Source: Peptococcia bacterium
Lineage (GTDB): Bacteria > Bacillota > Peptococcia > Peptococcales > SKKY01
Assembly: GCA_965228015.1 (NCBI GenBank)
Contig: OZ245787.1
Span: 1,377,536 to 1,441,535, forward strand
Reading direction: 5' to 3'
DNA: 64,000 bases
Both the position numbers and the translations under genes were made by a program. How positions within the stretch are numbered: position 1 is the stretch's first letter; each line of letters begins with the position of its first letter. The notes below the pieces were generated by a model that was not told where the DNA came from, did no database searches, and saw only the letters and a program-made list of their open reading frames with translations. Below are positions 1 to 29,831 of the stretch, piece by piece.

Positions 1-405
1 AGGTTGAGGCTGTGGCCGCCGCCATCAGGGAACTTGAAGAATCCAGGGCCATTTTAAAATACTCTGCGGTTATTGACTGGGAAAAGAATGACTCTGAAAA
101 AAACTAATGCTTTAATTGAGTTAACAATAACTCCCGAGCGGGAGTTTGGTTTTGATAAAATTGCTGAACGAATTTACGGTTTTCCTGAGGTGAAATCTTT
201 ATATCTGATGAGCGGGTCTTATGATCTTGCAGTTTTTGTGGAGGCGGATAGTTTTAAAGATATTTCCTTATTCGTGAGTGAAAAACTGGCTCCTTTGAAC
301 CAGGTTAAGGGAACTAAAACCCACTTTATTATGAAAAAATACAAGGAGCTAGGTGTTCCTTTTAAAAGTGAAGAAAATGCGAAAAGGCTGGTGGTTACTC
401 CGTGA
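1..405 (+). pseudogene. Lrp/AsnC family transcriptional regulator, 5' end outside window, frameshifted
   Basis: Frame from nt 3 reads VEAVAAAIRELEESRAILKYSAVIDWEK and hits TAA just after an A7 run (97-103). The C-terminal Lrp domain (YLMSGSYDLAVFVEA) continues in the 73..405 frame. Typical Lrp-aminotransferase pairing. Confidence 0.8.
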
Positions 406-478
406 GTATAGTTTTTGAGAAGGCGTTGAATGAAAAAATTAAAATGAACCTCCTTCAAAGATAAGAAAGTTTTTTGAT

Positions 479-1606
479 TTGGTTGTTAATACTTCTGGAG
501 TTATTTCTCTGGGTGTTGGTGAGCCGGATTTTATGACTCCCTGGCATATTCGGGAGGCGTCTTTCTATTCTTTGGAGAAAGATTACACAACATATACAAG
601 TAATAAAGGACTAATTGAGTTAAGACGGGCAATTTCAAAATATCTGACAAAACATGATGTAGAATATAATCCTGAAGATGAGATTCTGGTTACTATTGGT
701 GTTAGCGAGGGTGTGGATTTGGTCCTACGGGTGCTGGTTAAGGCTGAGGATGAAATTTTGGTTCCCGATCCTTCTTATGTAAGTTATTCCCCATTAATTG
801 GTTTGGCTATCGGAGTCTCTGTTCCTTTGAAACCCAGTTGTGAAAATGCTTTTAAGATTACCGCTGATGAACTTGAGGCGGCAATTACGCCAAAAACTAA
901 GGCATTAATTTTGACTTTCCCAAATAATCCTACAGGGGCGATTTTGACTAAGGAAGAGCTGGAAAAGCTGGCTGAGGTTATTATTCATCACGATTTAATT
1001 GTTATTTCAGATGAAATTTATGCTGAACTTACTTATGATGGGGTTCATGCTTCTGTGACAAGTTTGCCGGGAATGCAGGAGCGAACAATTTTGCTTAACG
1101 GATTTTCCAAGGCTTATGCTATGACAGGATGGCGTGTTGGCTATGTCCGCGGACCGGAAAACGTTATTTCTATGATGAACCGCATCCACCAGTATAGCAT
1201 TCTTTGCACCCCGGTTATGGGACAGCTGGCTGTAGTTGAAGCCCTGGAGAATGGGAATAAGGAAATGAAGCAGATGGTAATGTCATATAATTATAGAAGA
1301 AACTCAATGGTTAACGGATTTAATAAGATAGGGCTTGAATGCAGCCTGCCCCAGGGGGCTTTCTATGCCTTCCCCTCGGCGAAGAATACTGGTTTGAGTT
1401 CCGATGAGTTTGCGGAAAGGCTGGTGCTGGCAGAAAAAGTTGCCGTAGTGCCAGGAACTGCTTTTGGGGAAATGGGGGAAGGCTACATTCGCTGCTGCTA
1501 CGCCGCATCACAAGCCGACATCAACGAAGCAGTCAAGCGAATGGACCGCTTTCTAACCCGCACAGGAGGGGACGCTTCCAAAATCAGCGCGTCATCCACA
1601 GGCTGA
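479..1606 (+). CDS. PLP-dependent aminotransferase class I/II; the natural GTG start at 402 appears separated by a frameshift
   Basis: Motifs SLGVGEPDF, FPNNPTG, SDEIY and GFSKAYAMTGWRVG (PLP lysine). In-frame PSKIRKFFD lies upstream of 479, but GTG402, which overlaps the Lrp stop, is in another frame. Confidence 0.88.
   Translation: MVVNTSGVISLGVGEPDFMTPWHIREASFYSLEKDYTTYTSNKGLIELRRAISKYLTKHDVEYNPEDEILVTIGVSEGVDLVLRVLVKAEDEILVPDPSYVSYSPLIGLAIGVSVPLKPSCENAFKITADELEAAITPKTKALILTFPNNPTGAILTKEELEKLAEVIIHHDLIVISDEIYAELTYDGVHASVTSLPGMQERTILLNGFSKAYAMTGWRVGYVRGPENVISMMNRIHQYSILCTPVMGQLAVVEALENGNKEMKQMVMSYNYRRNSMVNGFNKIGLECSLPQGAFYAFPSAKNTGLSSDEFAERLVLAEKVAVVPGTAFGEMGEGYIRCCYAASQADINEAVKRMDRFLTRTGGDASKISASSTG
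1563..1604 (+). repeat. Gene-end motif copy 1: CAGG-AGGGGACGCTT-N14-TCATCCACA-GGCT
   Basis: 1567-1604 matches the reverse complement of 9075-9112 at 36 of 38 nt. It lies inside the last codons of the aminotransferase. Confidence 0.8.
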
Positions 1607-1658
1607 ATAGAAATAAATTGAAATTAGACAGAAATAAACTAATAAAATGAATTGAATT

Positions 1659-1718
1659 AAAAAAAGTGCGAAGTCTGAGTTAGAATTAAAAAATCCACTC
1701 AGACTTCGCACTTTTTTT
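1659..1718. terminator. Bidirectional intrinsic terminator
   Basis: AAAAAAAGTGCGAAGTCTGAGT...ACTCAGACTTCGCACTTTTTTT: 22-bp perfect stem including A/T tails, between convergent genes. Confidence 0.85.
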
Positions 1719-1774
1719 GTTTATATTAATTTTATTTCAAATCTGTACTATATATTTACTTATCTCCCTGCTCC

Positions 1775-1802
1775 CCTGTGGATAAATTGCACTAAATAGA
1801 AC
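1775..1802 (-). repeat. Distal half of motif copy 2 with a perfect DnaA box (TTATCCACA, 1777-1785), split from its proximal half (4505-4519) by the IS3
   Basis: Removing IS3 1803-4504 and one 3-bp duplicate gives, on the minus strand, CAGGAGGGGATGCTT-N14-TTATCCACAGG, with the same spacing as copies 1 and 3. The N14 spacer differs in sequence. Confidence 0.6.
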
Positions 1803-2984
1803 TGGTCTGACCCCCAAAAATTACACAAAATTGGGACAGTAAGATATACTAATTTTGGGGGCTGATTTTAATGACAAAGAACTATTCCGATGAATTTAAA
1901 CTCTCTGTAATTAAGGAATATTACGAAAGCAATCTTAGGGTAAGAAAGATTACTGCAAAGTACAATTTATCTTCAAAAAATCTTGTTCTTAATTGGGAAA
2001 AACAATTAAAAGAAAAAGGACTTCTTCCAACAGAAGCTAAGAAAGATCCGGATAAGATAAAAATCAGATCAGATAAAATAGATTTTCCTGAGAAAACACA
2101 AAGAGAAATTGAATACGAAAAAGAAATAGAACATCTTTATGCTAAAATTGAATACTACGAACAATTAGAGCATTTACAGCCCTTTATTTCTAAAAAAACA
2201 AAAGTCAGGGAGCTAAAGTACAGAGCTATATTTGCTTTGGAATTTAAATATACAGTAAAATTTCTTTGCGAAATTGCTGGAGTAAAAAGAAAAGCCTATT
2301 GCAATTTCAGAGACAAACCAATAAAAAAAGAAGATCCCATTGAGAAAATAATTATTCAAATATATAACAAATCAAAAGGAATTTTTGGTTACAGAAGAAT
2401 AGGAAATGAGCTAAGAAATACGTTTAAAATAGTTGTTAATCATAAAAAGATTCAAAGAATAATGCAGGAAAACAATCTCAGATCCAGAATCAGAAGAAAA
2501 AAGAATAGGATTCAAGATGATAAACAATTCAAAGCCAATATATTAAACAGGGATTTTAAGGCAAGTCGCCCAGGAGAAAAAATAGCCACAGATATTACCT
2601 GTATTCCTTACAGAAACTCTAAGCTATATCTGTGTGTTGCCCTAGATCTGTTTAACAATAAACCGGTAAGCCGGGAATACAGTAAGAATCCTGACAGCAA
2701 GCTGACTGTAAAAACTATTGAAAAACTTTCAAAAAAGATAGATATTAAGAATACTGTTATCCATAGTGATCAAGGTGTTTAATACACAAGCAAAGAATAT
2801 TCCAGCTATTTAAAGTCTTTAGGAGCAGTTCAAAGTATGTCCAGAAGAGGAAATTGCTGGGATAATGCGAAGATTGAAAGTTTCTTTAGCCATTACAAAA
2901 CAGAAAGTATTAATCTCTACAAGAAAAGAATCAAAAGTTTTAAAGATATAAAAGAAATTACTGAAGATTACATTAAATTTTATA

Positions 2985-4372
2985 GGTTCTACAATAAATG
3001 TTGGGGTGGCAAAAACCATTCTGACATTTATTTGCGAAAAAATACAGAGCATTGGGTAAGTCTATATTAGAGAACACCCACTGTAATCTAAGGAGGAATT
3101 TACTTATGCTCTGTAATAACTATTATATTAAAAAATTAATTGGTTTTAAAGGGATAATTTTAGAACAATTAGAAACTTCTTCTGATTCAATGTCCTTTTC
3201 TTTTTCTCTGGAGATTAAAACTCACAATTACCCCAAATGCCATCAACAAACCAGTAAAGTTCATGATTACAGAATTCAAATGATAAAAGATATTTCCATC
3301 TCAGGGAAGAAAACCTACCTTTACTATAAAAAAAGAAGGTACGTTTGTAATCACTGCAATAAAAAATTCTACGAAAAAAATGATTTTCTCCCCCGCTATC
3401 AAAGAATGACCAGCAGGCTGATAAAATACATAATTACTCGAATGAAAAATGTTTACTCTGTATCTGATATTGCCAAAGAGAATAATATTTCACCATCAAC
3501 GGCTCTCAGGCTTTTTAGATTCATAAACTATTCCCTAACAAAATTGCCCGAAGTAATCTCTATTGATGAATTTAAAGGTAATGCCGGGGGCAAAAAAGTA
3601 CCAGTGCATATTAACTGATCCCCAAAACAAGAAGGTACTTGATATTCTTCACGGAAGAGAACAACACATTTTATCGGACTATTTCAGGAAATTCAATGAC
3701 AGGGATAAAGTAAAATACTTCATTATGGATATGTGGCAACCTTACAAGGATATTGCTGAAACATATTTTAAAAATGCAACTATCATTATCGATAAATTCC
3801 ATTTCATTAGGCAGGTCACTTGGGCATTTGAAAGAATTAGGAAAGATGAGCAAAAGAAATTTGCCAAGGAAAGGCGAAGATATTTCAAAAGAAGTCGCTC
3901 CCTTCTCTTAAAAAGAATGAAGTATTTAACTCCTGAAGAAATTGACCAGGTAAATGTTATGCTTGCTACTTCTGAGAAACTGCAAAAAGCTTATATGTTA
4001 AAAGAAAAATTTTATAACTTTGTTGACAGCAGTGATTTAGAAAGTGCAAAAAAGAATTTGAAAGCCTGGTATATGTTTGTTATGTCCTGTGAGCTTGAAG
4101 AATTCGATAAATGCTCCAGAACCATTTTCAACTGGCAGAAATATATTCTTAATTCATTTACTTGTGCTTATACTAACGGATATACAGAAGGAGTTAACAA
4201 CAAAATTAAGGTTTTAAAAAGAAATGCTTATGGTGTAAGAAATTTTTGGAGATTCAAAAACAGAATAATGCACGTAATGAACTAAAAACAATTTAAATAA
4301 GTACCGCATTTTTCAATGCGGTACTTATGGAATCTAATCTAATTGGGTTACCCCAACATTTGACAAAGAACC
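2985..4372 (+). mobile_element. ISL3-family IS, copy 1, with 8-bp target duplication ATTTTATA
   Basis: Ends GGTTCT...AGAACC with IR core AAATGTTGGGG. ATTTTATA at 2977-2984 and 4373-4380. Confidence 0.93.
3106..4285 (+). pseudogene. ISL3 transposase, +1 frameshift
   Basis: Zn-finger region, SIDEF, DMW and TNGYTEGVNNKIK motifs. A6 at 3592-3597 versus A5 in the intact copy at 19419-20597. Confidence 0.9.
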
Positions 4373-4496
4373 ATTTTATATAAATGACAGGACGCATAGA
4401 GCCTTGGAGGTGTCCCTCCAAGGCTCTATAAACAGATTTTTTCATTTAATTAATTTGGTGAAATTTACTGTCCCAGAAGTGTACCCTTTTTGGGGT

Positions 4497-5429
4497 TCAC
4501 ACCAAAGCATCCCCTCCTGCGCTGCTAACTCGATTGCGGCCTTCTTGTTTAGCTCTGTACAAGGCTTTGTCGGCCTTTTCTAATATTTCCTGAGGTCTTG
4601 AATCCATTTGTGGAGCCATTGTGGCAACTCCTATACTAATGGTTACAAATTTACTCACCTTTGAAGCTTCATGGGGTATTTTTAAATTCTCAACACCCTT
4701 GCGTAATTCTTCTGCAAGTTTCATAGCACCTTCATGATTTGTACCCGGAAGAGCACAGGCAAACTCCTCACCACCCCAACGGGCAACAAGATCTGCACCT
4801 CTCTTCAATAAGTTTTTAAGAGCATAAGCAACCATCTTAAGACACTCATCTCCCTCAAGATGTCCATAAGTATCGTTGTAAATTTTGAAAAAATCCAAGT
4901 CCAACATTAGCACAGACAATTTTTCTTCATATCTTCTGGCCCGGCTCCATTCAGCCTCTAAAATTTCATTAAACTTATTTTTATTAGGAATTTTAGTAAG
5001 TCCATCCAGCATACTATTTTCTTTAATTACATCCCTTAGCTTTTTTAATTCAATATGATTTTTAACCCGGGCTTTTAGCACAGGTATGCTGTAAGGTTTA
5101 GTTATATAGTCGATGGCGCCGATTTTAAGGCCTTTTTCTTCATCTGCTTCCTTACTTAAAGCAGTAACAAAAATTACTGGAATTTCTTTAGTTTCCGGCA
5201 AACTTTTTAAAACCTCAAGAACCTGGAATCCATTCATTTCTGGCATCATTATATCCAAAAGAATAAGATCGGGAACCGGAAGCTTTGTTGCCATTTCCAA
5301 GGCCTCCTCACCACTTGTAGCAACTCTTATTTGACATTCATCTTGCAAGGCAGTGCCAAGCACACGAATATTCATTAGTGTGTCATCTACAATTAGAATT
5401 AAAGGTTTTTCATTAATATTATTTCTCAT
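4497..5429 (-). CDS. PleD-like response regulator diguanylate cyclase (REC-GGDEF)
   Basis: REC motifs VDD, LDIMMP, DYITKP. DLDFFK, I-site RGAD and active site GGEEF. Probable ATG at 5429 overlaps the kinase stop. The stop codon now falls in the IS3 right end. Confidence 0.9.
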
Positions 5430-7190
5430 CAGCGTCCATCCTTTGTAACAATTTTTCAACTTGATTTCTTGCCCCAGGATAATTAAAGTTATCCAAATTT
5501 AACTTAATTTTCGAAATTTCCTCTTCAAGACCAGGACATACAGATGCTAATATTTCAATTTCTTCTATAAGGGTATCTGAAATGAAAGCATTTGAGTTAA
5601 CCATATCCTTTAAGATCTGCATTTTTTCCAGCAATTCCAGAGATACTTCTGCTCCCAGGTTTGTACAATATTTAAAAATCCCTTTCGTTTCTTTGAGTAT
5701 TTCTAAATTTTCCGGTTCGGCAATTTTTCTCAAGGGAAGCTTAATAATAAAAGCTGTTCCAACCAAGTCAATACTACTGTTTTCTACATGGATACTTCCA
5801 CCCATTAATTCAACCAATCCTTTTACTATTGCCAGACCAAGGCCTGCCCCTTTATGGGTTCTTATTGTTGAATCTTCAAGCTGGGTAAATCCTTGAAAAA
5901 TTTTGTTCTTTTTATCTTCAGGTATTCCTACCCCTGTATCAGATACTATTATCTGAACTAAATTATTCAAATTTTTTAGGGTAATTCGAATCTCTCCGAT
6001 AGATGTGTGTTTTACTGCATTCCCTGCAACATGAAGTAAAATTTGTTTTAATTTATCTTCATCCCCAAGATAAATATCTTTATATCCTTCTTTTATATCT
6101 ATCGTAAATTTTAGTTTTTTCTTTTGGATTTCCTCTCTATAATATGTTTCTATTTCTGAAAGAATTCTCTCAAAATTCACTTGTTTTTCTTCAAGGCTGA
6201 TTTTCCCAAGCTCTATGTCTGCAAAATCCAGAATTTCATTTATTACTCTTAGTAAGTCCCTGGCGGATTCTTGTATGTCATTAAAGTATCCAATAAGCTC
6301 ATCTTTATTGGAGCCTGTAAGTTCTTTTTTAATAATGTAGCTAAGACCAATTATTCCGTTCATCGGGGTGCGGATTTCATGGCTCATATTTGCCAGGAAC
6401 ATACTTTTTGTTAAATTTGCTGATTCTGCCGCTTCTTTTGCAGCTTTCAATTCTTCTTCTGTGTTAATTTTTTCTGTAATGTCCTGAGTTGAGCCTACAA
6501 GATATTTTATTTTTCCCATTTCTTCTATAGGGAAAAGCTTGACGTGCCAGGTTTTTTCCCTCCAGGGAGATCATATGTTTCAGTATATGAGAGATTATCT
6601 TTTTGCTTAAGGCATTTATGATAGTAGGAAGAGAGCACCGCTCCCAAATTCTCACCATATACTTGTTCAGGAGTTTTTCCAAGTATTTCATTAAGAGGAA
6701 CTCCTGTTTTCTCCTGATAAATTCTATTCACTCTAAGATGTAAGAAATCATAGGCACCTGTTATTTTATTATGCACTGGTTGTACAAGAAACATTGACTC
6801 TTCAGTGGCATTAAATACAATTTCATATTCCTTGAGGATAAGCTCATTTTCAATTGTATCAATAAATAAGGTCACAAATTTATTAAGACCTGTTTTAAAA
6901 ACAGAAACTCTAAAATATTTTCCCGTTTCTTTAACAAAAACTGTTTCTAGAAATGGTTTCCCTGTTTTGACAACTTCTCCATAATTTTTAATTAGATTTT
7001 TATCTGTACCCGGAAGCACTTGCAGAACAGATTTATTTTTAATTTCATTAAATAAAAGTCCGGTAAGCTCTTCGAATTTCTTATTTCCCTCGAGAAAAAT
7101 GTAATCCACAGGATTTCCGAACTCATCAAAGACCATCTCATGAAGAACATAAGCTTCTTGCAATTGATCAATAATATTATTTTTATCCAT
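5419..7190 (-). pseudogene. PAS-PAS histidine kinase split by a frameshift
   Basis: 7190-6525 holds two PAS-like folds and 6519-5419 holds [20 protein letters not shown] and GAGLGL. One A is missing in the run at about 6552-6557; restoring it gives [18 protein letters not shown]. Confidence 0.82.
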
Positions 7191-7225
7191 ATAATCATCC
7201 TAACGTTCTTAGCTATATATCCAAA

Positions 7226-8572
7226 TTATTCTGTATAAAAAGGATATTCATCAAAAGGAAATAATTCCTTGATCTCCACCCTAGTTCCCCCCGAAACAAC
7301 ATCAAATCCATCTTTTGAGATAGCTAAACCTTCAAAAAAAGCACCTTCAAAAGTGATTTTTCCATTTGGCGCAAAAAGTATTCCTGAAAGGCCACTCCCA
7401 CCAAGGCCTTTAATAGATATGTCGCCGGTTTTAGCAACAATGATTACATTGTTTGTTGTTGGTAAATATATATTTGAATCATAACTCTCTGAGTATATTT
7501 TTATGTTATCTGAGAGATTGGGATTCCCAGCAACATAACCATTAAGATCATACCAAAAATCATTTTTAAGTGAAGGCATTAAATAAGGTGCTGTTATTAC
7601 AGACGGAACCTGAGCTTGTTTAATGCATTTATCTAGAATAGATTGATCAAAGTGAGAAGGATATTTTATCTCCCCAGCATAATAAATTTTAGTATCCTCA
7701 GATAGAAAGGGTGTCCAACCCAGTTTAAGATCCCCACTTACATAAACATTACCATGAATTCTCGCGTCTTTTAACTTAAAATCTCCGTTAACAAAAATAT
7801 CTCCATATATATTTCTAGTTCCGCTCCATAAACCTAAACTCCCATTTACATGTATTTGACCCGGATTACTACTAAAGCCCAACTCATTACTTCCGTTATT
7901 AAGTTTGACATCTCCGCCGAAAAAAATATTTGATACATGAATGGATCCATTTGATGGCAAATCATTATTTTTTAATTCCGAAGAAATAATAACTGTAGCC
8001 CCATCTCCAACAATATCATCTCCCTTAAAGTAGAGGTTCGTTCCCATAATAAATACCTTATCTTCAATAAATATGGGTAATTTATTTTTCTTCACTTCCC
8101 ACTCCCAGCGGGCTATTTTTAATTCGTGAAGGTAAGGATCTCCTTTATCATCAGTACTTGTAATTTGTGCATTATACAAATTATTATTCCCCGGCTCTTT
8201 TTCAAGATCAATATCGACAATATCTTTAAAATCTATAACTTCAGTTCCTCTTTGCCTTGAAATGTAATACCTTCCCTGGTCATCTTGCAGTCTTTTATAC
8301 AATATCTCTTCTGTTGAATTCAGGTTAATTTTATATTCATAAGTTTCCGGAGGACCGCTTTCTACAACATTTTTGCAATTCCTCAAATCGTCTTTCAAAA
8401 AACTTTCCAAACTACGAATGTCATTTCTTTTTGCCGATTCTTTTATCTGCTGTGTCGTTATTTTTTGATTCATGAACAACATGGGGTAAGCGATGCTGCT
8501 TATTACTCCCAAAATTATTATTACAATCATCATTTCTACTAAAGTTCTGCCTTTGTTATTAAGTAAGTGCAA
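7226..8572 (-). CDS. Type IV pilin-like (PilW-type N-terminus) protein fused to a C-terminal beta-helix domain, paralog B
   Basis: KG-RTLVEMMIVIIILGVI class III signal. Repeats such as IYGDIFVNGDF and IHGNVYVSGDL. Shares FKIARW(E/R)W, WTP and APxG.I.GxxFxG motifs with paralog A. Confidence 0.72.
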   Translation of the reverse strand: MHLLNNKGRTLVEMMIVIIILGVISSIAYPMLFMNQKITTQQIKESAKRNDIRSLESFLKDDLRNCKNVVESGPPETYEYKINLNSTEEILYKRLQDDQGRYYISRQRGTEVIDFKDIVDIDLEKEPGNNNLYNAQITSTDDKGDPYLHELKIARWEWEVKKNKLPIFIEDKVFIMGTNLYFKGDDIVGDGATVIISSELKNNDLPSNGSIHVSNIFFGGDVKLNNGSNELGFSSNPGQIHVNGSLGLWSGTRNIYGDIFVNGDFKLKDARIHGNVYVSGDLKLGWTPFLSEDTKIYYAGEIKYPSHFDQSILDKCIKQAQVPSVITAPYLMPSLKNDFWYDLNGYVAGNPNLSDNIKIYSESYDSNIYLPTTNNVIIVAKTGDISIKGLGGSGLSGILFAPNGKITFEGAFFEGLAISKDGFDVVSGGTRVEIKELFPFDEYPFYTE

Positions 8573-8629
8573 GTCATACCACCCCTGAATATTTTGCTGA
8601 TAAAATTCCGATACCTTTTTTAAACACCC

Positions 8630-9046
8630 TCAACTGCTGGTTATGGTTACCTCTCCGTTAGCGGCTATTGTTGCAGATATTGTAACACTCTGTATTACTT
8701 TTGTCCCACCCAAAATTTCACCTGTAGAAGAAATTGAAGTTGCAGTAAGTTGTGTAATTGTATACCTGTAAGTCAGGGCTCCTCCTAGATTCCAATCCGC
8801 TTGAAGTGGTGGCGTTGATACCAGGGGATTTTCGTTTTCTATCAAAGACAGAGCGTGTTCTATTCCTGCCTGGGCAAGATAATTTGCCCTCTCTCGCTCC
8901 TCTGTTCCTAAATTCAGGCGAACTTCTGTATTTAAAGTAAGGAGCATGGTACTTGTTAGAGTAATGACCACTGCAACGACAATTACAACAAGAACAAGTG
9001 CGTAGCCTTTATTATTTTTTATCATAGCTTGCATCATTTTTTGCAT
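8630..9046 (-). CDS. PilX-like minor pilin (N-terminal domain only)
   Basis: KG-YALVLVVIVVAVVITL without Glu5, plus the PilX-type motif ANYLAQAGIEHA. Confidence 0.7.
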   Translation of the reverse strand: MQKMMQAMIKNNKGYALVLVVIVVAVVITLTSTMLLTLNTEVRLNLGTEERERANYLAQAGIEHALSLIENENPLVSTPPLQADWNLGGALTYRYTITQLTATSISSTGEILGGTKVIQSVTISATIAANGEVTITSS

Positions 9047-9074
9047 CTCTCCTTAAAACCTTCAGCTTGAACTT

Positions 9075-9112
9075 AGCCTGCGGATAACGCGCTGATTTTG
9101 GAAGCGTCCCCT
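9075..9112 (-). repeat. Gene-end motif copy 3: AGGGGACGCTT-N14-TTATCCGCA-GGCT
   Basis: 36/38 identical to 1567-1604. Overlaps the TAG stop of the 9111 gene. Confidence 0.8.
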
Positions 9113-10586
9113 AATCCGCGGGGAGCATTTCGTTGAGGAATGGGTACAGGTTTGCGTCTGGGATGTAGGTTTCTATGCCTTCGAAGGTTACTTCCATTCC
9201 TCCTGAGGACATGTCGGCTCCTTCTGATGCTATAACCAGACCTGTGAAACTTGCTCCTCCGATTGTTACATATCCGTATGGTGCATAGATTACTCCGCTA
9301 AGATTAAGCCCTCCTCTTGATATAGTTATATCTCCTGCTAAATTGACTACTATAACATTGCTGATTGTCCCACCAATTGACTGAGTGTAATTTCCTGAGG
9401 TTACATATACTTTGGCGCCATTTGATAAAGGACCATTTAGCACATACCCATTATCAGCATACCACTGGGCATCTCTTGGTACTGGTACTTCATATTCTGG
9501 AACTGATTTTTGTGCTACTGCTACTGTTGTGACCATCTGTTCAAAGTGAGTTAGTGTGTATGATGCGGGGTGAGTAATTATTCCAAAATAATATACCATT
9601 GAGCCCGTTGTGAAACTGGGTGTCCAATTTACAGTTACATTTCCATTTACGTACATGTTTCCCTCTAAGGTTCCGTCCTTTATATACAAGTTACCATTAA
9701 CATAGACATCACCTTCAACTAATCCATTGGAGAAATTAAAATCCCCTTGAACATATACGTTACCATATATTTTTCCTGAGCCGGACATATTCAAATCACC
9801 ATTTACATAAACGTCTCCGTAAATGTCTGCCGCACCTGCCAATGTAACATTTCCATCTACTACTATTTCTCCTGGTTCTGTTATTGAACCAAGACTTCTG
9901 TTCCCATTTATATCTATATCCCCTGTAATATATAAATTAGAAACTCTTACTTTTGCATTTCCGTTAAGGTCACTGCTAGTGAGACTTGAGTCCACATAAA
10001 TTGTAGCTCCATCACCAGTTACTGTACCCCCACCCATTGCAAACCCTGCGCCAATTACAAATAAGTCTTCTTCTTCAAGGAGCTCATAAATAGCCTGCTC
10101 TTCTTCAGCCATAATATGCCAACGCCAGCGGGCTATTTTAAATTCATATATACTTTCTGTTCCTGTTTCTTCCATAATATATAACTTTACCTGAGCTAAA
10201 TCTTCTGTATCTGCCAGGTCATATATTTCTGCATTTGTTATTTCCGGGAAATTAATGTCTTTGCCTTCAAATCTTCTAACCACATGGTAAGTCCCATCTT
10301 CACCTTGAGCCCGGGTATAGATAATAGACTTGTCCAGATGTTTAACTGTAGAACGAAATCCCACAGGCTCGCCGAGATCTTTAACTACGATATCATAAGA
10401 TTCCCGAATATCTTCTTTGAGAAAATTGGCAATTGCTCTGACTTCGTTTCTTTCAAGGGAATTGCCTAGCTCATCTGTCACCAATTTATTATTTAAAAAT
10501 AAAACGGAGTGGGCGATAGCTCCAATAACTCCTATAATCAAAATTACTATGAGCATTTCAATTAAAGTTGTTCCTTTTTCATTCAT
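9111..10586 (-). CDS. Type IV pilin-like (PilW-type N-terminus) protein fused to a longer beta-helix domain, paralog A
   Basis: MNEKG-TTLIEMLIVILIIGVIG from ATG 10586 with a GGGGTGAG RBS. Tandem 16-17 aa repeats G[DN]VYVNG[DN]L. Confidence 0.75.
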   Translation of the reverse strand: MNEKGTTLIEMLIVILIIGVIGAIAHSVLFLNNKLVTDELGNSLERNEVRAIANFLKEDIRESYDIVVKDLGEPVGFRSTVKHLDKSIIYTRAQGEDGTYHVVRRFEGKDINFPEITNAEIYDLADTEDLAQVKLYIMEETGTESIYEFKIARWRWHIMAEEEQAIYELLEEEDLFVIGAGFAMGGGTVTGDGATIYVDSSLTSSDLNGNAKVRVSNLYITGDIDINGNRSLGSITEPGEIVVDGNVTLAGAADIYGDVYVNGDLNMSGSGKIYGNVYVQGDFNFSNGLVEGDVYVNGNLYIKDGTLEGNMYVNGNVTVNWTPSFTTGSMVYYFGIITHPASYTLTHFEQMVTTVAVAQKSVPEYEVPVPRDAQWYADNGYVLNGPLSNGAKVYVTSGNYTQSIGGTISNVIVVNLAGDITISRGGLNLSGVIYAPYGYVTIGGASFTGLVIASEGADMSSGGMEVTFEGIETYIPDANLYPFLNEMLPAD

Positions 10587-10587
10587 T

Positions 10588-11085
10588 TTACTCACCCCGT
10601 ATTCTGGTAATTGCCTTCCAGTCGGTAACATTTGGTGAATTAATAATTATTGTTAAATCAAAGGTGTGATTTAACCCATTGCTTGAGTTGATAATCAGCT
10701 TTGCATTGTAATCTATATTATTTGTATCTGCATAAGTCTTTAAAACAGTATTACCGCTTGCATCTGTAGCATCCTTTGTATAACCTAATGGTCCTGGAGT
10801 TGTTTCATCTGTTGCTAATTGTGTTTTCAGATGGGCAACCGTATTCCAGTTTACACCTGAGTCAGAATTTCCCCGGAAAGATTTAATTTCATCTATTGCC
10901 GAGGTTGCAATGGCCACGACTTCAAGACGTTCCCGGCTTACGCTCCTTGCTTTCAATGAAGAAAAGGAAATTTGGGCAAACATGGCACTTAGAATTCCAA
11001 GTATTGCAATTGCAACTATCACTTCCGCCAAGCTGTATCCTTTATTATTTTTTATAATGCTATTCTTACCCCTGCAAAAATTCAT
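10588..11085 (-). CDS. PilV-like minor pilin with prepilin cleavage/methylation motif
   Basis: KG-YSLAEVIVAIAILGIL. ATG 11085 is preceded by AAGGAG. Confidence 0.78.
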   Translation of the reverse strand: MNFCRGKNSIIKNNKGYSLAEVIVAIAILGILSAMFAQISFSSLKARSVSRERLEVVAIATSAIDEIKSFRGNSDSGVNWNTVAHLKTQLATDETTPGPLGYTKDATDASGNTVLKTYADTNNIDYNAKLIINSSNGLNHTFDLTIIINSPNVTDWKAITRIRGE

Positions 11086-11170
11086 TGTGATACTCCTTCT
11101 TTTATAAGGTAAAAAACGGTAAGAAAAGACAATCTTTTTCCTGCCGGTATATTTTGCCAAATTATTAAAT

Positions 11171-11818
11171 TTAAGATAAGTTTTTCTGGAAAGGAATAAT
11201 TTTCTCGGACAAAAGATACATTTCCTGATAAAGTCTTCCCCAGAAGCACAGCCCCCTTTGCCAGCTTCCTCTCAAATAAACCTTTTCGTCCATAGAAAGT
11301 TCTTGGCCAGACTTGATTTTTTTCTCAATTGCGTCAATTTCCTCGTGGTCATTTATTACAGTATCTAAAAATACATAAACGCTCCTCATTTCCTCTTCAG
11401 AAAGAACGTTTTGAAATTCCAGCTCAATTAATTTGTTGGTCAGCCAGTATGTGGCAATTGTTTTTGCAAGAACCATAACATTTTTATAATTAAAAATCAG
11501 ACAATTTGAATTTACAAAATCTCTGATTTGTTTAATATTATTTAAGGCTATTTCTTTAATCATTTCCTGATCTTCCGCAAAAACTTCTCCGCTTATAATA
11601 GAAGATTTTAGTTTCTCAGTAGTAATAGTTAATTTTTCCTGAAACTTTTCATCATCTTCTTGGAGATATTGTTTCATTTCCTCCACAGCAAAAGCTGTAC
11701 TGCTTGCGGACACTATCCAAAAAAATCCTTCCGAGGAAAACAGTTCAGGATTTATATTGTGAAGATCATTATCAGAGAAATCAATTAACTGATTATATCT
11801 TATTTTCAATTGGGCCAC
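11171..11818 (-). CDS. Hypothetical protein, about 215 aa
   Basis: Long open frame. A GTG at 11818 follows AAGGAA with a TATAAT upstream. The longer 11941 start would overlap the Gx gene. No motif recognised. Confidence 0.55.
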   Translation of the reverse strand: MAQLKIRYNQLIDFSDNDLHNINPELFSSEGFFWIVSASSTAFAVEEMKQYLQEDDEKFQEKLTITTEKLKSSIISGEVFAEDQEMIKEIALNNIKQIRDFVNSNCLIFNYKNVMVLAKTIATYWLTNKLIELEFQNVLSEEEMRSVYVFLDTVINDHEEIDAIEKKIKSGQELSMDEKVYLRGSWQRGLCFWGRLYQEMYLLSEKIIPFQKNLS

Positions 11819-11900
11819 TTCCTTTATTTGAGTTATGTAAAAATTATACCCAAATCTTCCATTTATTAAACAAGATTCAGCAAATATTATAGCAATTGAA

Positions 11901-12408
11901 TTAACAGGAAACGTAAACCCGATTAAAAGAATAGAAACCAATCGTATCTATAAAAAGTCCCATTATAACTCCTGAAACAGTTAGTATTGGCATATAGCTA
12001 AAAATCCGGAAATTTTCCATTATAATTGCTGCTGCCAAAAGCTGACCAGCATTATGAGCTATTCCACCGACAACGCTGATACTTTAAATACTAATAACAT
12101 CCTTGCCGTATTTATAAAGAATAGACATCAGGGCTCCGCTTAGTAAACCTCCAGTAAGGCTGAAAAATTAAACTGCCCAAACTTCCCGCGAAGAGACTTA
12201 CCAAAAAACTACGCAAGATTATTATAATTATTGTATCTTTAAAACCTAAAAAATATACTCCGTACAAGGTTGTAATATTTGCCAAACCAAGTTTTACACC
12301 GGGAATTGGTACCGGGGCAGGAATGTAACTTTCCAATATACGCAAAGAAAGAGCCAGGGAGATTAAAATTGCAGTCCTAGCAATTTTACTGGGTTTAATT
12401 ATTCCCAC
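11901..12408 (-). pseudogene. Gx transporter (heptaprenyl diphosphate synthase component I-like) membrane protein, disrupted
   Basis: LESYIPAPVPIPGVKLGLANI motif. Frameshift near 12160, then an in-frame TAA before ISVVGGIAHNAGQL. Confidence 0.82.
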
Positions 12409-27013: not shown

Positions 27014-28450
27014 TTATTTTCCTAAATATCTCATTGGATCTACGTGCCTTGAATTAACATTAGTTTCAAAGTGAAGATGATTTCCTGTACTTCTGCCAGT
27101 GGATCCCACTGTTCCTATAAGATCACCACGTTGGACTGTTTGTCCCAGGCTAACTTTAAAAGATGTTTGGTGGGCATATTTAGTAGTAAGCCCGTTGCCA
27201 TGATCAATTATAGTTAGATTACCATAACTTCCTGACCAGCCTGCAAAGATTACTCTTCCATTTCCCGCAGAATAAACTGGTGTACCTTTAGATCCGCCAA
27301 TATCAATTCCGGTATGAAAACCGCTGCCTCTGGGGCCATATCTTGATGTTATTGTTCCTCTTAATGGCCAGGCAAGCTGTCCGTCACCACCACCACGAGA
27401 TGCTACCATTTTTTGAGTTCCTCTAAGAACTTCTTTAGCCGTAGGCTCTTTTAATACACCTGCAGCAACTTCTTCTTTTTGAACTTCCTTACCATTTTCA
27501 GAAATCACTTTATATGTTACTTTTCTAAGACCATTTTGACCGGCCTTTTTAACCTCAGTCTGACCTGTCCATAACTCTGCTGTGTTAGTATACTTTATTG
27601 GATATGGAATTGCTTCCTCAACAGTTACTTCCTTAGCAACCATTACATGTACTACAGGTTCCAGCTTTACTAATTTTAATTCCTGGCCTATGGAAATAAA
27701 GTCACCCTTAACCTTCGGATTGGCTTCCCTTAATTTACTAAGACCGAGTCCATGGCTTTCAGCTATTGTTGACAGGGTGTCACCTTTTGCAACTTTATAG
27801 GTTTCAATCTTATCAGTCCCTGTTAAAACAAAATTATTTGCTTCATCAACTGACATAATTTTTGCTGCAGAAACATTACTTTCTACAACTTCAATTTCTT
27901 CTTTAAACTCATAAGACAATATTTCTTCCCCTTCTTTAAGAAATCCTGTCTTCAATTTTTCAAGAAGCTGTTCTCCTTCTTCTTGAGTTTTTAAGAATAC
28001 TCTTTCTTCACCATTTACTTTTAATGCAAAAGCACTGGTCCGACAATCAACATAAGATCTGATTAGATCAGCAAGTTCCTGAGGATCTTTAATTTTTTTG
28101 CCTTCAAATTCACTTTCTGAAGATAAAACAATTTTTGAATCTACTCCACTCAAAGTATATCCAAGTTCCTTTTCTTGCTCTGCCTTAATAATATCTAATG
28201 CTTTTTCATATGTTTTTGCGCTATTTATTTTTACAATATTCTGTTCATTTGCACTTAATACTTGTGTAGATCCACCAAAAGAGAAAGTTGCTATTATTGT
28301 TAGTATAAAAAATGCTGCGACCATAATATGCATTTTGTTATACTTTCCTGCTTTCAGTTTCGCTGTGAGCTGTTTGACTAAATCTTCTATGTCCAGGACA
28401 CCTCCTTTGCGCAAACTTATCACAAGAATAATTATATCATATGAAGACAA
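27014..28450 (-). CDS. LysM-G5-M23 peptidoglycan endopeptidase (start uncertain)
   Basis: LysM YKVAKGDTLSTIA, G5 domain, and M23 HTGID/HLHFE. AGGAGGT near 28400 suggests the real start is about 50 nt inside the called ORF. Confidence 0.88.
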   Translation of the reverse strand: MSSYDIIILVISLRKGGVLDIEDLVKQLTAKLKAGKYNKMHIMVAAFFILTIIATFSFGGSTQVLSANEQNIVKINSAKTYEKALDIIKAEQEKELGYTLSGVDSKIVLSSESEFEGKKIKDPQELADLIRSYVDCRTSAFALKVNGEERVFLKTQEEGEQLLEKLKTGFLKEGEEILSYEFKEEIEVVESNVSAAKIMSVDEANNFVLTGTDKIETYKVAKGDTLSTIAESHGLGLSKLREANPKVKGDFISIGQELKLVKLEPVVHVMVAKEVTVEEAIPYPIKYTNTAELWTGQTEVKKAGQNGLRKVTYKVISENGKEVQKEEVAAGVLKEPTAKEVLRGTQKMVASRGGGDGQLAWPLRGTITSRYGPRGSGFHTGIDIGGSKGTPVYSAGNGRVIFAGWSGSYGNLTIIDHGNGLTTKYAHQTSFKVSLGQTVQRGDLIGTVGSTGRSTGNHLHFETNVNSRHVDPMRYLGK

Positions 28451-28502: not shown

Positions 28503-29831
28503 TTAACAACTCAAGTATATAGCGCATTCTACTCTTTTCTTCTGAAGTTCGCAACCTTTTTTGTACACTTTGTAAAAGTCGCCTGTATCGTGCCAGTTGC
28601 TGAAATGACAACCTCCGCTGCAATAAAATCTGGCCCAGCAATCCATACACTCTTCTTTATTCAATACATTTGCATCTTGAAACATTTTACCAATCTTTTT
28701 GGAAATGTCTCCTTGATAAACATTCCCAAGTAAAAAATCTTTGTTCCCCACAAACTGATGACAAGGATATATATCACCCTGCGGACTTATAGCTACATAC
28801 TCATGACCTGCACCACAAGCAGAAATTCTTTTTGGAAGGCATGGTCCTTTATATATGTCAATATTGAAGTGGAAGAAATTAAAGTCACTATTTTTTTCCA
28901 TATATTCTGTAAGCTTATCATACTCTTTAAGGATTAATGGTATATCTTCGTTTTTTATCGAATAAGAGGCTTCCTCTGGTCCCACAACCGGCTCAATAGA
29001 AAGATTTTTCAGACCCATTTCTTCAAGATGCTGCAAATCTTTTAAAAAGTCAGTATTTTCCCTGGTAAAAGTCCCTCGAACAATATAGCTCTTATATCCA
29101 TCGGCAATAAAGTTTTTAATATTATTTGAAACAACGTCATAAGAACCTTTATGATTTGCTGTATATCTCATTTTATTTTGCACTTCTGGTCTGCCGTCCA
29201 AGCTTAACACAACACTAATATTATGTTCTTTTAGAAAATCTCCCTTTTCTTTATCTAAAAGCAAAGCGTTCGTAGTTAAAGTCAATTCAGCAGCTTTTGC
29301 AAGTTCTTTTGTTCTTTTTTCAATATATAATATTAGCTCTTTAACAACCTGAAAATTCATTAGAGGTTCGCCACCAAAAAAATCAATATTAAAATTTTTT
29401 CGAGATCCAGACTCCTTAAACAGAAGTTCGACAGCTGCTTTTCCTGTTTCAAAGGACATCATTCCCCGGTCTCCTCCATATGGCCCCTGATCTGCAAAGC
29501 AATAAGGACAACGGAGATTACAATCGTGGGCAATATGAAGACACATAGCTTTAATAATTGGATTCTCAGGAGGAGTATATTCAGTTATTTCCCCTGGAGG
29601 AGAAAAGAGAACACCCTCTTCCGCCAACTCTTTAATTTCTTTTAAAACTTCTTTAGCCTCTTCAGAATCAGGAGTGTAACTTTCCCCTTGTTCTTTTAAA
29701 TTCTCAAGAATATTAAAAGTTAAATCATCAATAAGATGAATGCTGTCAGAATTAATATCCAGCAAAATATTTTTATCTTTATATTTGTAAAAATGGATTC
29801 TGGAAAAATCATATTTGTTCATCAAAAACAT
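28503..29831 (-). CDS. scfB: SCIFF radical SAM/SPASM maturase
   Basis: N-terminal RRE region, AMCLHIAHDCNLRCPYC, DFFGGEP and SPASM CGAG..YPCHQF..C..C...YCSGGC. Confidence 0.93.
   Translation of the reverse strand: MFLMNKYDFSRIHFYKYKDKNILLDINSDSIHLIDDLTFNILENLKEQGESYTPDSEEAKEVLKEIKELAEEGVLFSPPGEITEYTPPENPIIKAMCLHIAHDCNLRCPYCFADQGPYGGDRGMMSFETGKAAVELLFKESGSRKNFNIDFFGGEPLMNFQVVKELILYIEKRTKELAKAAELTLTTNALLLDKEKGDFLKEHNISVVLSLDGRPEVQNKMRYTANHKGSYDVVSNNIKNFIADGYKSYIVRGTFTRENTDFLKDLQHLEEMGLKNLSIEPVVGPEEASYSIKNEDIPLILKEYDKLTEYMEKNSDFNFFHFNIDIYKGPCLPKRISACGAGHEYVAISPQGDIYPCHQFVGNKDFLLGNVYQGDISKKIGKMFQDANVLNKEECMDCWARFYCSGGCHFSNWHDTGDFYKVYKKGCELQKKRVECAIYLSC

Follow-up and report, generated by a model that had tools for sequence, protein, structure and literature searches.

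Three copies of a bipartite motif at gene ends

The 64,000-nt stretch analyzed here (the window) comes from the genome of an uncultured genus of Clostridia, assembled as a single 1.9-Mb contig with 33.5% G+C (G000). Six genomes of the genus were available, G000 included: G003 and G004 are sister species, and G001, G002, and G005 are further relatives. Between positions 1563 and 9112, the window holds three copies of a motif that combines a GGGGAC core with a DnaA box. Based on its distribution, its pairing, and its association with a transposase gene in relatives, this motif is very probably the arm of a hairpin repeat of the REP/REPIN type that serves as DNA partner to a RAYT/TIRYT-type Y1 (HUH) tyrosine transposase, domesticated and present in single copy. 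The features of the locus are listed in Table 1.

Table 1. Motif copies, insertion sequences (IS), terminator, and adjoining genes, in window positions
Feature	Positions	Strand	Description
Aminotransferase gene	479..1606		Convergent with the GGDEF response-regulator gene
Copy 1, predicted left arm of a long-loop doublet	1563..1604	+	Core GGGGACGCTTC at 1568-1578, 13-nt spacer, degenerate DnaA box TCATCCACA at 1592-1600; orthologous arm in G003 and G004
Bidirectional intrinsic terminator hairpin	1658..1719	.	In the loop between copies 1 and 2; A7, 15- to 16-bp stem, T7
Copy 2, right arm, inner part	1773..1802	-	Perfect DnaA box at 1777-1785 and spacer, up to the IS3 left end; G003 ortholog intact
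IS3-family element in the core of copy 2	1803..4504	+	Domains HTH_Tnp_1, HTH_21, and rve; split by ISL3 at ~2985-4372
GGDEF response-regulator gene	4497..5459	-	Crosses copy 2; last codons and stop at 4497-4504
Copy 2, right arm, outer part	4505..4519	-	Core CAGGAGGGGATGCTT, within the last codons of the GGDEF response-regulator gene
Copy 3, predicted solo arm	9075..9112	-	Core, spacer, and box TTATCCGCA; between two pilin-like genes
Pilin-like gene	9111..10631	-	TAG stop at 9111-9113

A first reading of the window, made from the letters alone (the sequence-only reading), had described these copies as a recurrent gene-end motif. It put the identity of copy 1 (1567-1604, AGGGGACGCTTCCAAAATCAGCGCGTCATCCACAGGCT) and copy 3 (AGGGGACGCTTCCAAAATCAGCGCGTTATCCGCAGGCT) at 36 of 38 positions, and we obtained the same figure; both mismatches lie within the 9-mer, which in each copy departs by one position from the DnaA box consensus TTATCCACA. 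Copy 2 is interrupted by an IS3-family element, and its outer part reads AAGCATCCCCTCCTG. Excising that element had been said to restore copy 2 with a perfect box and the same spacing as in the other copies. The box is there, but the spacing does not follow from the cut as made: when exactly 1803-4504 is removed, GGGGATGCTT and the box are still 17 nt apart, and the 14 nt of copy 1 are recovered only if one copy of the 3-bp target duplication (imperfect, AAC/AAG) is taken out as well. Independent support for copy 2, and for the claim that copies 1 and 2 face each other, comes from the orthologous locus of G003, where both arms are intact around the terminator, free of any IS, and flanked by the same convergent aminotransferase and GGDEF genes.

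All three copies overlap the end of a gene, as originally noted. The aminotransferase gene terminates inside copy 1, and the arm encodes its last 13 codons and stop. The GGDEF response-regulator protein has the tail ...GGDALV*, with the IS3 end providing the last codons and stop; the same gene in G003 continues through the intact arm. The stop codon of the pilin-like gene overlaps the 5' edge of copy 3, near which no partner arm was found. The terminator in the loop between copies 1 and 2 was missed by a simple terminator scan because its own loop exceeds 8 nt, and it was revealed by folding (-32.9 and -35.6 kcal/mol, z of about -9.7 and -9.9). Copies 1 and 2 would constitute one long-loop element lying between two convergent genes and enclosing their terminator, and copy 3 would be a solo arm.

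Distribution and composition of the repeat family

To define the family, we scanned genomes with the pattern GGACGCTTC-N13-TTATCCACA, allowing up to 2 mismatches and using the reversed pattern as a control. The window gave two matches against a chance expectation of 0.04. Across the genus, the pattern matched 13 times in G000, 41 times in G003, 46 times in G004, and once in G005, and 35 genomes from other genera of the order had no match; the reversed pattern matched nowhere. A profile search with nhmmer raised the number of arms in G000 to 32. The possibility that the three copies had no further counterparts in the genome and no conservation in relatives does not hold, as dozens more exist in G000 and its relatives. 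Among GTDB species representatives, multiple exact copies are confined, but for one record, to two metagenome-assembled genomes (MAGs): "Clostridia bacterium INTA.AUR.031" and a MAG labeled "uncultured Eubacteriales." That one record consists of two contigs from the INTA.AUR sample that also gave G003; they are binned as Sphingobacteriia, and we take them to be mis-binned.

The arm is bipartite, with an outer core, (A)GGGGACGCTTC, and an inner block, TTATCCACAGG, both near-invariant across species. Of 102 arms, 67 have (A)GGGGACGCTTC as their outer end, and most of the remaining ones have [T/A]GGGACGCTTC. Among 100 distinct arms, the inner block is a perfect TTATCCACA in 80 and fits TTWTNCACA in 89. 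The 13 nt between the two blocks vary by species: they read CAWWWTCMGCGSG in G000 and G003, CATYTGRCTCRCT in G004, and CAAATGCCTCGAC in the metagenome contig L111. An open reading frame (ORF) of at least 100 codons ends in or just before 37 of 77 full-length arms, and the impression of a gene-end motif, with its ...GGDA... protein tails, arises because about half of these arms carry such ORF ends.

The arms pair into hairpins

Most arms occur as inverted pairs. We counted 25 short doublets, 13 of them exactly 78 nt long, which is the commonest length, and 16 long-loop doublets, several of which enclose a terminator; single arms also occur. When 12 doublets from three species were aligned, 89.5% of cells were paired, compared with 37 to 48% when the partner was slid out of register. 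Of 35 pairs, 13 were altered on both sides, and the observed covariation score was reached by none of 500 shuffles. As single-stranded DNA, the 78-nt unit folds into a hairpin of -19 and -40 kcal/mol (z of -5 and -15). Single arms, copies 1 and 3 among them, do not self-fold beyond shuffled sequences; for this reason, we dropped the idea that a solo arm forms a hairpin of its own with an upstream CGCKGATTA. No direct repeats or target duplications were found around the doublets.

Strong hairpins at the ends of so many ORFs could also be read as RNA-level elements, that is, 3'-end structures that stabilize or terminate transcripts and are selected on the mRNA and not as mobile DNA. Arm differences in G004 that yield G-U pairs on one strand would fit this explanation, which we nevertheless regard as very unlikely. 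No T tract follows the hairpin, and where termination is needed, a separate terminator stands in the loop. Furthermore, the primary sequence of the two blocks is conserved beyond what pairing would demand, and RNA-level selection leaves the association with the Y1 gene described below unexplained. There is also no Rfam match: a scan of positions 1-12000 at a lenient threshold returned two chance-level matches only.

A Y1 transposase gene is flanked by the repeat in relatives

The sequence-only reading had proposed looking for an HUH/RAYT transposase next to the repeats, and relatives of G000 do have one, in the form of a single-copy RAYT-type Y1 gene flanked by the repeat. The Y1_Tnp domain (PF01797) occurs once per genome in G001, G002, G004, and G005, in a protein of about 275 residues. 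Its gene lies between prfA and ndk in G004, G005, and G001, where a variant of the repeat particular to each flanks it, and near ndk in G002, where no arms were seen beside it. Two metagenome contigs, L109 and L111, encode proteins 65 to 68% identical, and doublets of core and box lie on both sides of the gene. The gene order prmC-prfA, small ORF-RAYT, ndk is shared by G004, G005, G001, L109, and L111. Together with the genome scan and the conservation in relatives, this association bears out the proposal of a small, REP/MITE-like interspersed element (MITEs being miniature transposable elements with inverted repeats) with a bipartite arm.

The protein has the features expected of such an enzyme. 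H62 and H64 (the HUH motif) and Y121 are invariant in 47 homologues. An AF2 model computed from the alignment of these homologues reached a pLDDT (predicted local distance difference test) of 89, and a Foldseek comparison with PDB structures ranked 4ER8 first (E = 1e-8), a complex of the E. coli RAYT with a REP hairpin. An initial model from the single sequence was useless (pLDDT 41). The last ~60 residues form a three-helix, C-terminal helix-turn-helix (HTH) domain that is conserved in the 47 homologues.

In more distant homologues (33 to 42% identity), from Anaerosalibacter, Acetivibrio alkalicellulosi, Dethiobacter, and a MAG, the gene is likewise bracketed by inverted repeats whose core is GGGGAC or GGGACGG; the Anaerosalibacter palindrome is present at about 37 sites genome-wide, and the control at none. 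GGGGAC-core repeats are thus generally linked to this protein clade in Bacillota.

On this evidence, we propose that the Y1 domain would recognize the GGGGAC core, located at the hairpin base, and cut there on single-stranded DNA, and that the duplex formed by two boxes near the tip would be read by the HTH domain or by host DnaA. Recognition and cutting by the Y1 domain would move or copy the element.

Other features of the transposase locus were noted. In every relative examined, a small ORF of 57 to 79 codons lies directly upstream of the RAYT-like gene and is codirectional with it (L109:2281-2475, L110:2257-2496, L111:2313-2486, and L095 upstream of 1462), with no Pfam match recorded. Toxin-antitoxin pairs (PhdYeFM/ParE, HicB-like) are situated between the RAYT-like gene and ndk at L109:3480-5367 and L111:3477-4047, set off by repeat doublets. 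Stretches of N lie in or beside the RAYT-like gene in L098 (G001) and L097 (G005), and the G001 protein is only partly readable.

Insertion sequences land in the core

The genome of the window is rich in IS, with approximately 45 to 50 ISL3, 28 IS3-family, and 9 IS1182-like copies, plus others. The right-end flanks of the IS3 copies abut AAGCGTCCCC or AACTGTCCCC in 25 of 28 cases, and most left-end flanks hold the rest of the arm. The target duplication is AAG where both sides are clean. Viewed from the core, 12 of the 26 exact GGGGAC[GA][CG]TT sites in G000 abut an IS3 end, and no ISL3 end does (0 of 102 ends abutting the core). The IS3-family element would insert after GGGGACGCTT, with a 3-bp duplication. 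The IS1182-like element, all of whose ~9 copies have broken frames, sits in the same core with a duplication of about 9 bp, GGACGCTTC. The IS3 copy in the window has itself been inactivated by an ISL3 insertion with an 8-bp duplication.

An identical arm stretch, TGTGGATAAATTGCACTAAATAGAAC, adjoins the left end of several IS3 copies (genome positions 939732, 1499628, 1610835, and 1614623; window 1786-1802); the IS may have taken part of the arm with it, or the stretch may have been spread by recombination among the copies. Outside the window, at about 25.8 to 52.9 kb of the genome, three tandem copies of ~11.4 kb each hold an IS3 at the same place (ends at 28576, 39956, and 51336; flanks at 27241, 38621, and 50001).

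This frequent adjacency of arms and IS ends raised the question of whether the arms could instead be a MITE of a DDE transposon, such as the 38-bp, GGGG-initial ends of the Tn3 family, or else belong to the IS3 or IS1182-like elements as their termini. The length of the arm (~38 nt), its GGGG start, and the TAAG end of copy 3 do recall the Tn3 family, and yet we consider an origin of this kind most improbable. A Tn3-family transposase was found in none of the six genomes of the genus, and the idea of such an origin was rejected accordingly. The doublets lack flanking target duplications, and the arms of G003 and G004 are free of IS. In addition, the ends of IS3, ISL3, and the IS1182-like element differ from the arm. 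IS3 and the IS1182-like element have different inverted repeats of their own, and within the arm they produce target duplications of 3 bp and ~9 bp. We rejected separately the notion that the arms are the ends of the IS1182-like element, as one copy has a clean GGACGCTTC duplication and the arms of G003 and G004 occur without any IS.

The DnaA box within the arm

The inner block raises the question of what a DnaA box does in such a repeat. In G000, perfect TTATCCACA boxes number 26, against 24 expected from base composition, and 16 of the 26 lie in repeats. The only perfect boxes in the window outside repeats are the two next to dnaA. Binding of DnaA to the arms is plausible because the host DnaA has a canonical domain IV.

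These counts, along with the constancy of the box in arms whose adjoining spacer changes from species to species, might indicate that the elements were selected as high-affinity, dispersed DnaA boxes with a titrating or regulatory effect on the initiator, in the manner of datA or of the Bacillus DnaA-box clusters (DBCs), with the repeat structure being secondary. We judge this unlikely. The G001/L110 lineage, in which the protein is 52% identical, has the same gene and the same core, with GGGGACGCAAC arms that lack the box. A change within the box, TTATCC to TTTTCC, is mirrored in the partner arm (A-T to T-A, pair 28-51), a sign that the constraint is pairing. Copies 1 and 3 both have mutated boxes. 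Finally, a role in DnaA binding leaves unexplained both the equally conserved GGGGACGCTTC core and the link to the Y1 gene. The sequence-only reading had leaned toward such a role, based on the proximity of the copies to oriC and on an analogy with the Bacillus clusters. The proximity appears incidental, as dnaA is ~31 kb away but copies are found all round the chromosome, and the analogy fails on arrangement, since each element has one or two boxes and the elements are dispersed. Titration of DnaA is possible as a side effect of the repeats.

Within the hairpin repeat, the box could be a working part and no mere accident of sequence: the paired boxes would form one duplex consensus box close to the tip, at a distance of 13 bp from the core GGGGAC. 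Either the HTH domain of the transposase would have evolved to read this box, or the box would recruit the host DnaA. We offer this tentatively, as the less probable outcome. If true, recruited DnaA could assist in extruding or opening the hairpin, or it could tie cutting to replication. A working box would also account for the DnaA_C-like or HTH domain of this Y1 subclass, a question that Quentin et al. (2018) left open, and the repeats would add tens of high-affinity DnaA sites to small genomes.

A layout of the spacer resembling the DnaA-trio of origin unwinding was considered and rejected, as inspection by eye according to the rules of PMC8287927 gave no run of three NAN triplets. Separate from the repeat family, a tight run of DnaA-box-like 9-mers (TTATCCACAGG... 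then TTATCCTCAGATTTATCCACTTTATCCACAG) lies outside the window at genome positions 1493567-1493630, ~83 kb from dnaA, and could be a genuine DnaA-box cluster.

Points against a transposase-linked repeat, and the state of the family in G000

Several observations weigh against our interpretation of the arms as a RAYT-type repeat. The Y1 protein scores just below the cut-off of the REP-associated tyrosine transposase family (NCBIfam NF047646 REP_Tyr_transpos; 78.5 bits compared with 80), and its C-terminal domain matches HTH_23 at only 19.5 to 22.5 bits, below the cut-off of 24.6, as a generic HTH. Homology of this domain to DnaA domain IV was not detected: PF08299 did not match, hhalign against the DnaA domain IV of the genus gave a probability of 1.6%, and a profile search of the PDB returned generic HTH proteins only. 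Homologues with the same domain, from Anaerosalibacter and others, have repeats without DnaA boxes, and a reading of the box by the HTH is unsupported for that reason. The 5' GTAG that is the hallmark of classic REPs is absent from the arms, and we saw no cleavage site, excision product, or recent insertion. Most repeat sites are orthologous in G000, G003, and G004, and present-day mobility of the repeat is therefore only putative. Finally, G000 has no PF01797 match and no tblastn trace of the Y1 gene, a masked 8-kb stretch (genome 976001-984000) being excluded, and the link between repeat and enzyme is therefore drawn from the relatives.

What remains at the locus in G000 is one arm pair in the ndk-prfA interval, with an IS3 copy and further ISs inserted in its core. 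PF01797 had no match in G003 either, nor was ndk present in that assembly; this absence is uninformative because the ndk-prfA locus is not assembled there. Comparison of the relatives showed one site occupied by the repeat in G004 but empty in G000, as well as a G004 doublet that corresponds to a deleted solo arm in G000. A perfect box is kept in 9 of 24 arms in G000 compared with 38 of 39 in G003 and 33 of 37 in G004, part of the G003 and G004 sample having been fetched with a pattern that requires the box. This loss of boxes in G000 fits a decay following loss of the enzyme. If the transposase of G000 is gone, its repeats would be orphans at old, orthologous positions, with decaying boxes, and would serve mainly as landing pads for IS.

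Comparison with known systems

The sequence-only reading recognized no named family for the motif. There is one close at hand: the nearest named system is REP/REPIN-RAYT and, more precisely, TIRYT/TIRtron with its GGGGWSAS motif (PMC3733652, PMC6006769). TIRYT genes have flanking repeats with this motif (Di Nocera et al. 2013, PMC3733652), and the C-terminal domain of TnpA-Y1 subclass 2.1 proteins is of the HTH or DnaA_C-like type (Quentin et al. 2018, PMC6006769). According to the latter study, the known GGGGWSAS consensus of the terminal inverted repeats has no resemblance to a DnaA box. Our system shares with TIRYT/TIRtron a RAYT-like Y1 protein longer than classic RAYTs, with an HTH_23-like C-terminal HTH, and moderately abundant repeat families that often form dimers. 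The outer end of the inverted repeats that flank the gene, GGGGACGC, matches GGGGWSAS at 7 of 8 positions (G for A at position 7), and the homologues have GGGGACAG or GGGGACGG. It differs in having a second block, the perfect DnaA box 13 nt inside the core, in belonging to an uncultured genus of Clostridia, and in the apparent loss of the gene in G000.

With the REP/BIME and REPIN sequences of Enterobacteria and Pseudomonas and their RAYT (PDB 4ER8; PMC3116915, PMC3337134), the family has in common dispersed intergenic palindromes and inverted hairpin doublets. Also shared are a single-copy, vertically inherited Y1 gene with a flanking repeat of its own (here in relatives), the retention of orthologous repeat sites, and the structural match to 4ER8. 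In contrast to those systems, our arms lack the 5' GTAG and are not palindromic when single, the protein has an additional HTH domain, and a DnaA box lies in the arm.

The use of such repeats as IS targets has a precedent. IS1397 and ISKpn1 are IS3-family elements that insert specifically into REP/BIME sequences, and the pattern in G000 resembles theirs in the near-exclusive insertion of an IS3-family element into a REP-type repeat of the host with a 3-bp duplication. The target differs, being the GGGGACGCTT core at the base of the hairpin instead of the loop between REPs, and here an IS1182-like element shares it. Finally, the repeats resemble the DnaA-box clusters datA of E. coli and DBCs of B. 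subtilis in placing consensus TTATCCACA boxes outside oriC, but the boxes of our family are putative DnaA-binding sites that are dispersed, palindromic, and linked to a transposase.

Implications for RAYT-type repeats

REP/REPIN-RAYT systems are known chiefly from Proteobacteria. The literature describes few repeat families associated with the Y1 subclass that bears an HTH, and it offers no DNA motif to account for the extra domain. The present family adds a clear case from Clostridia with a bipartite arm, in which a GGGGAC core and a perfect DnaA box are held at a fixed distance, and it adds the GGGGAC core beside homologous genes in several Bacillota lineages (Anaerosalibacter, Acetivibrio, Dethiobacter, and a MAG). 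What is new is the perfect DnaA box at a fixed distance inside a RAYT-type repeat.

G000 would represent a natural "after" state of such a system, in which the transposase has been lost, the boxes are decaying, and the repeats have turned into landing sites, with two insertion sequences homing on the transposase's own putative recognition core. For genome annotation, the family means that most perfect DnaA boxes of such a genome can sit in mobile repeats, which is relevant to the prediction of oriC and of the DnaA regulon. It also yields a protein-DNA pair that is directly testable.

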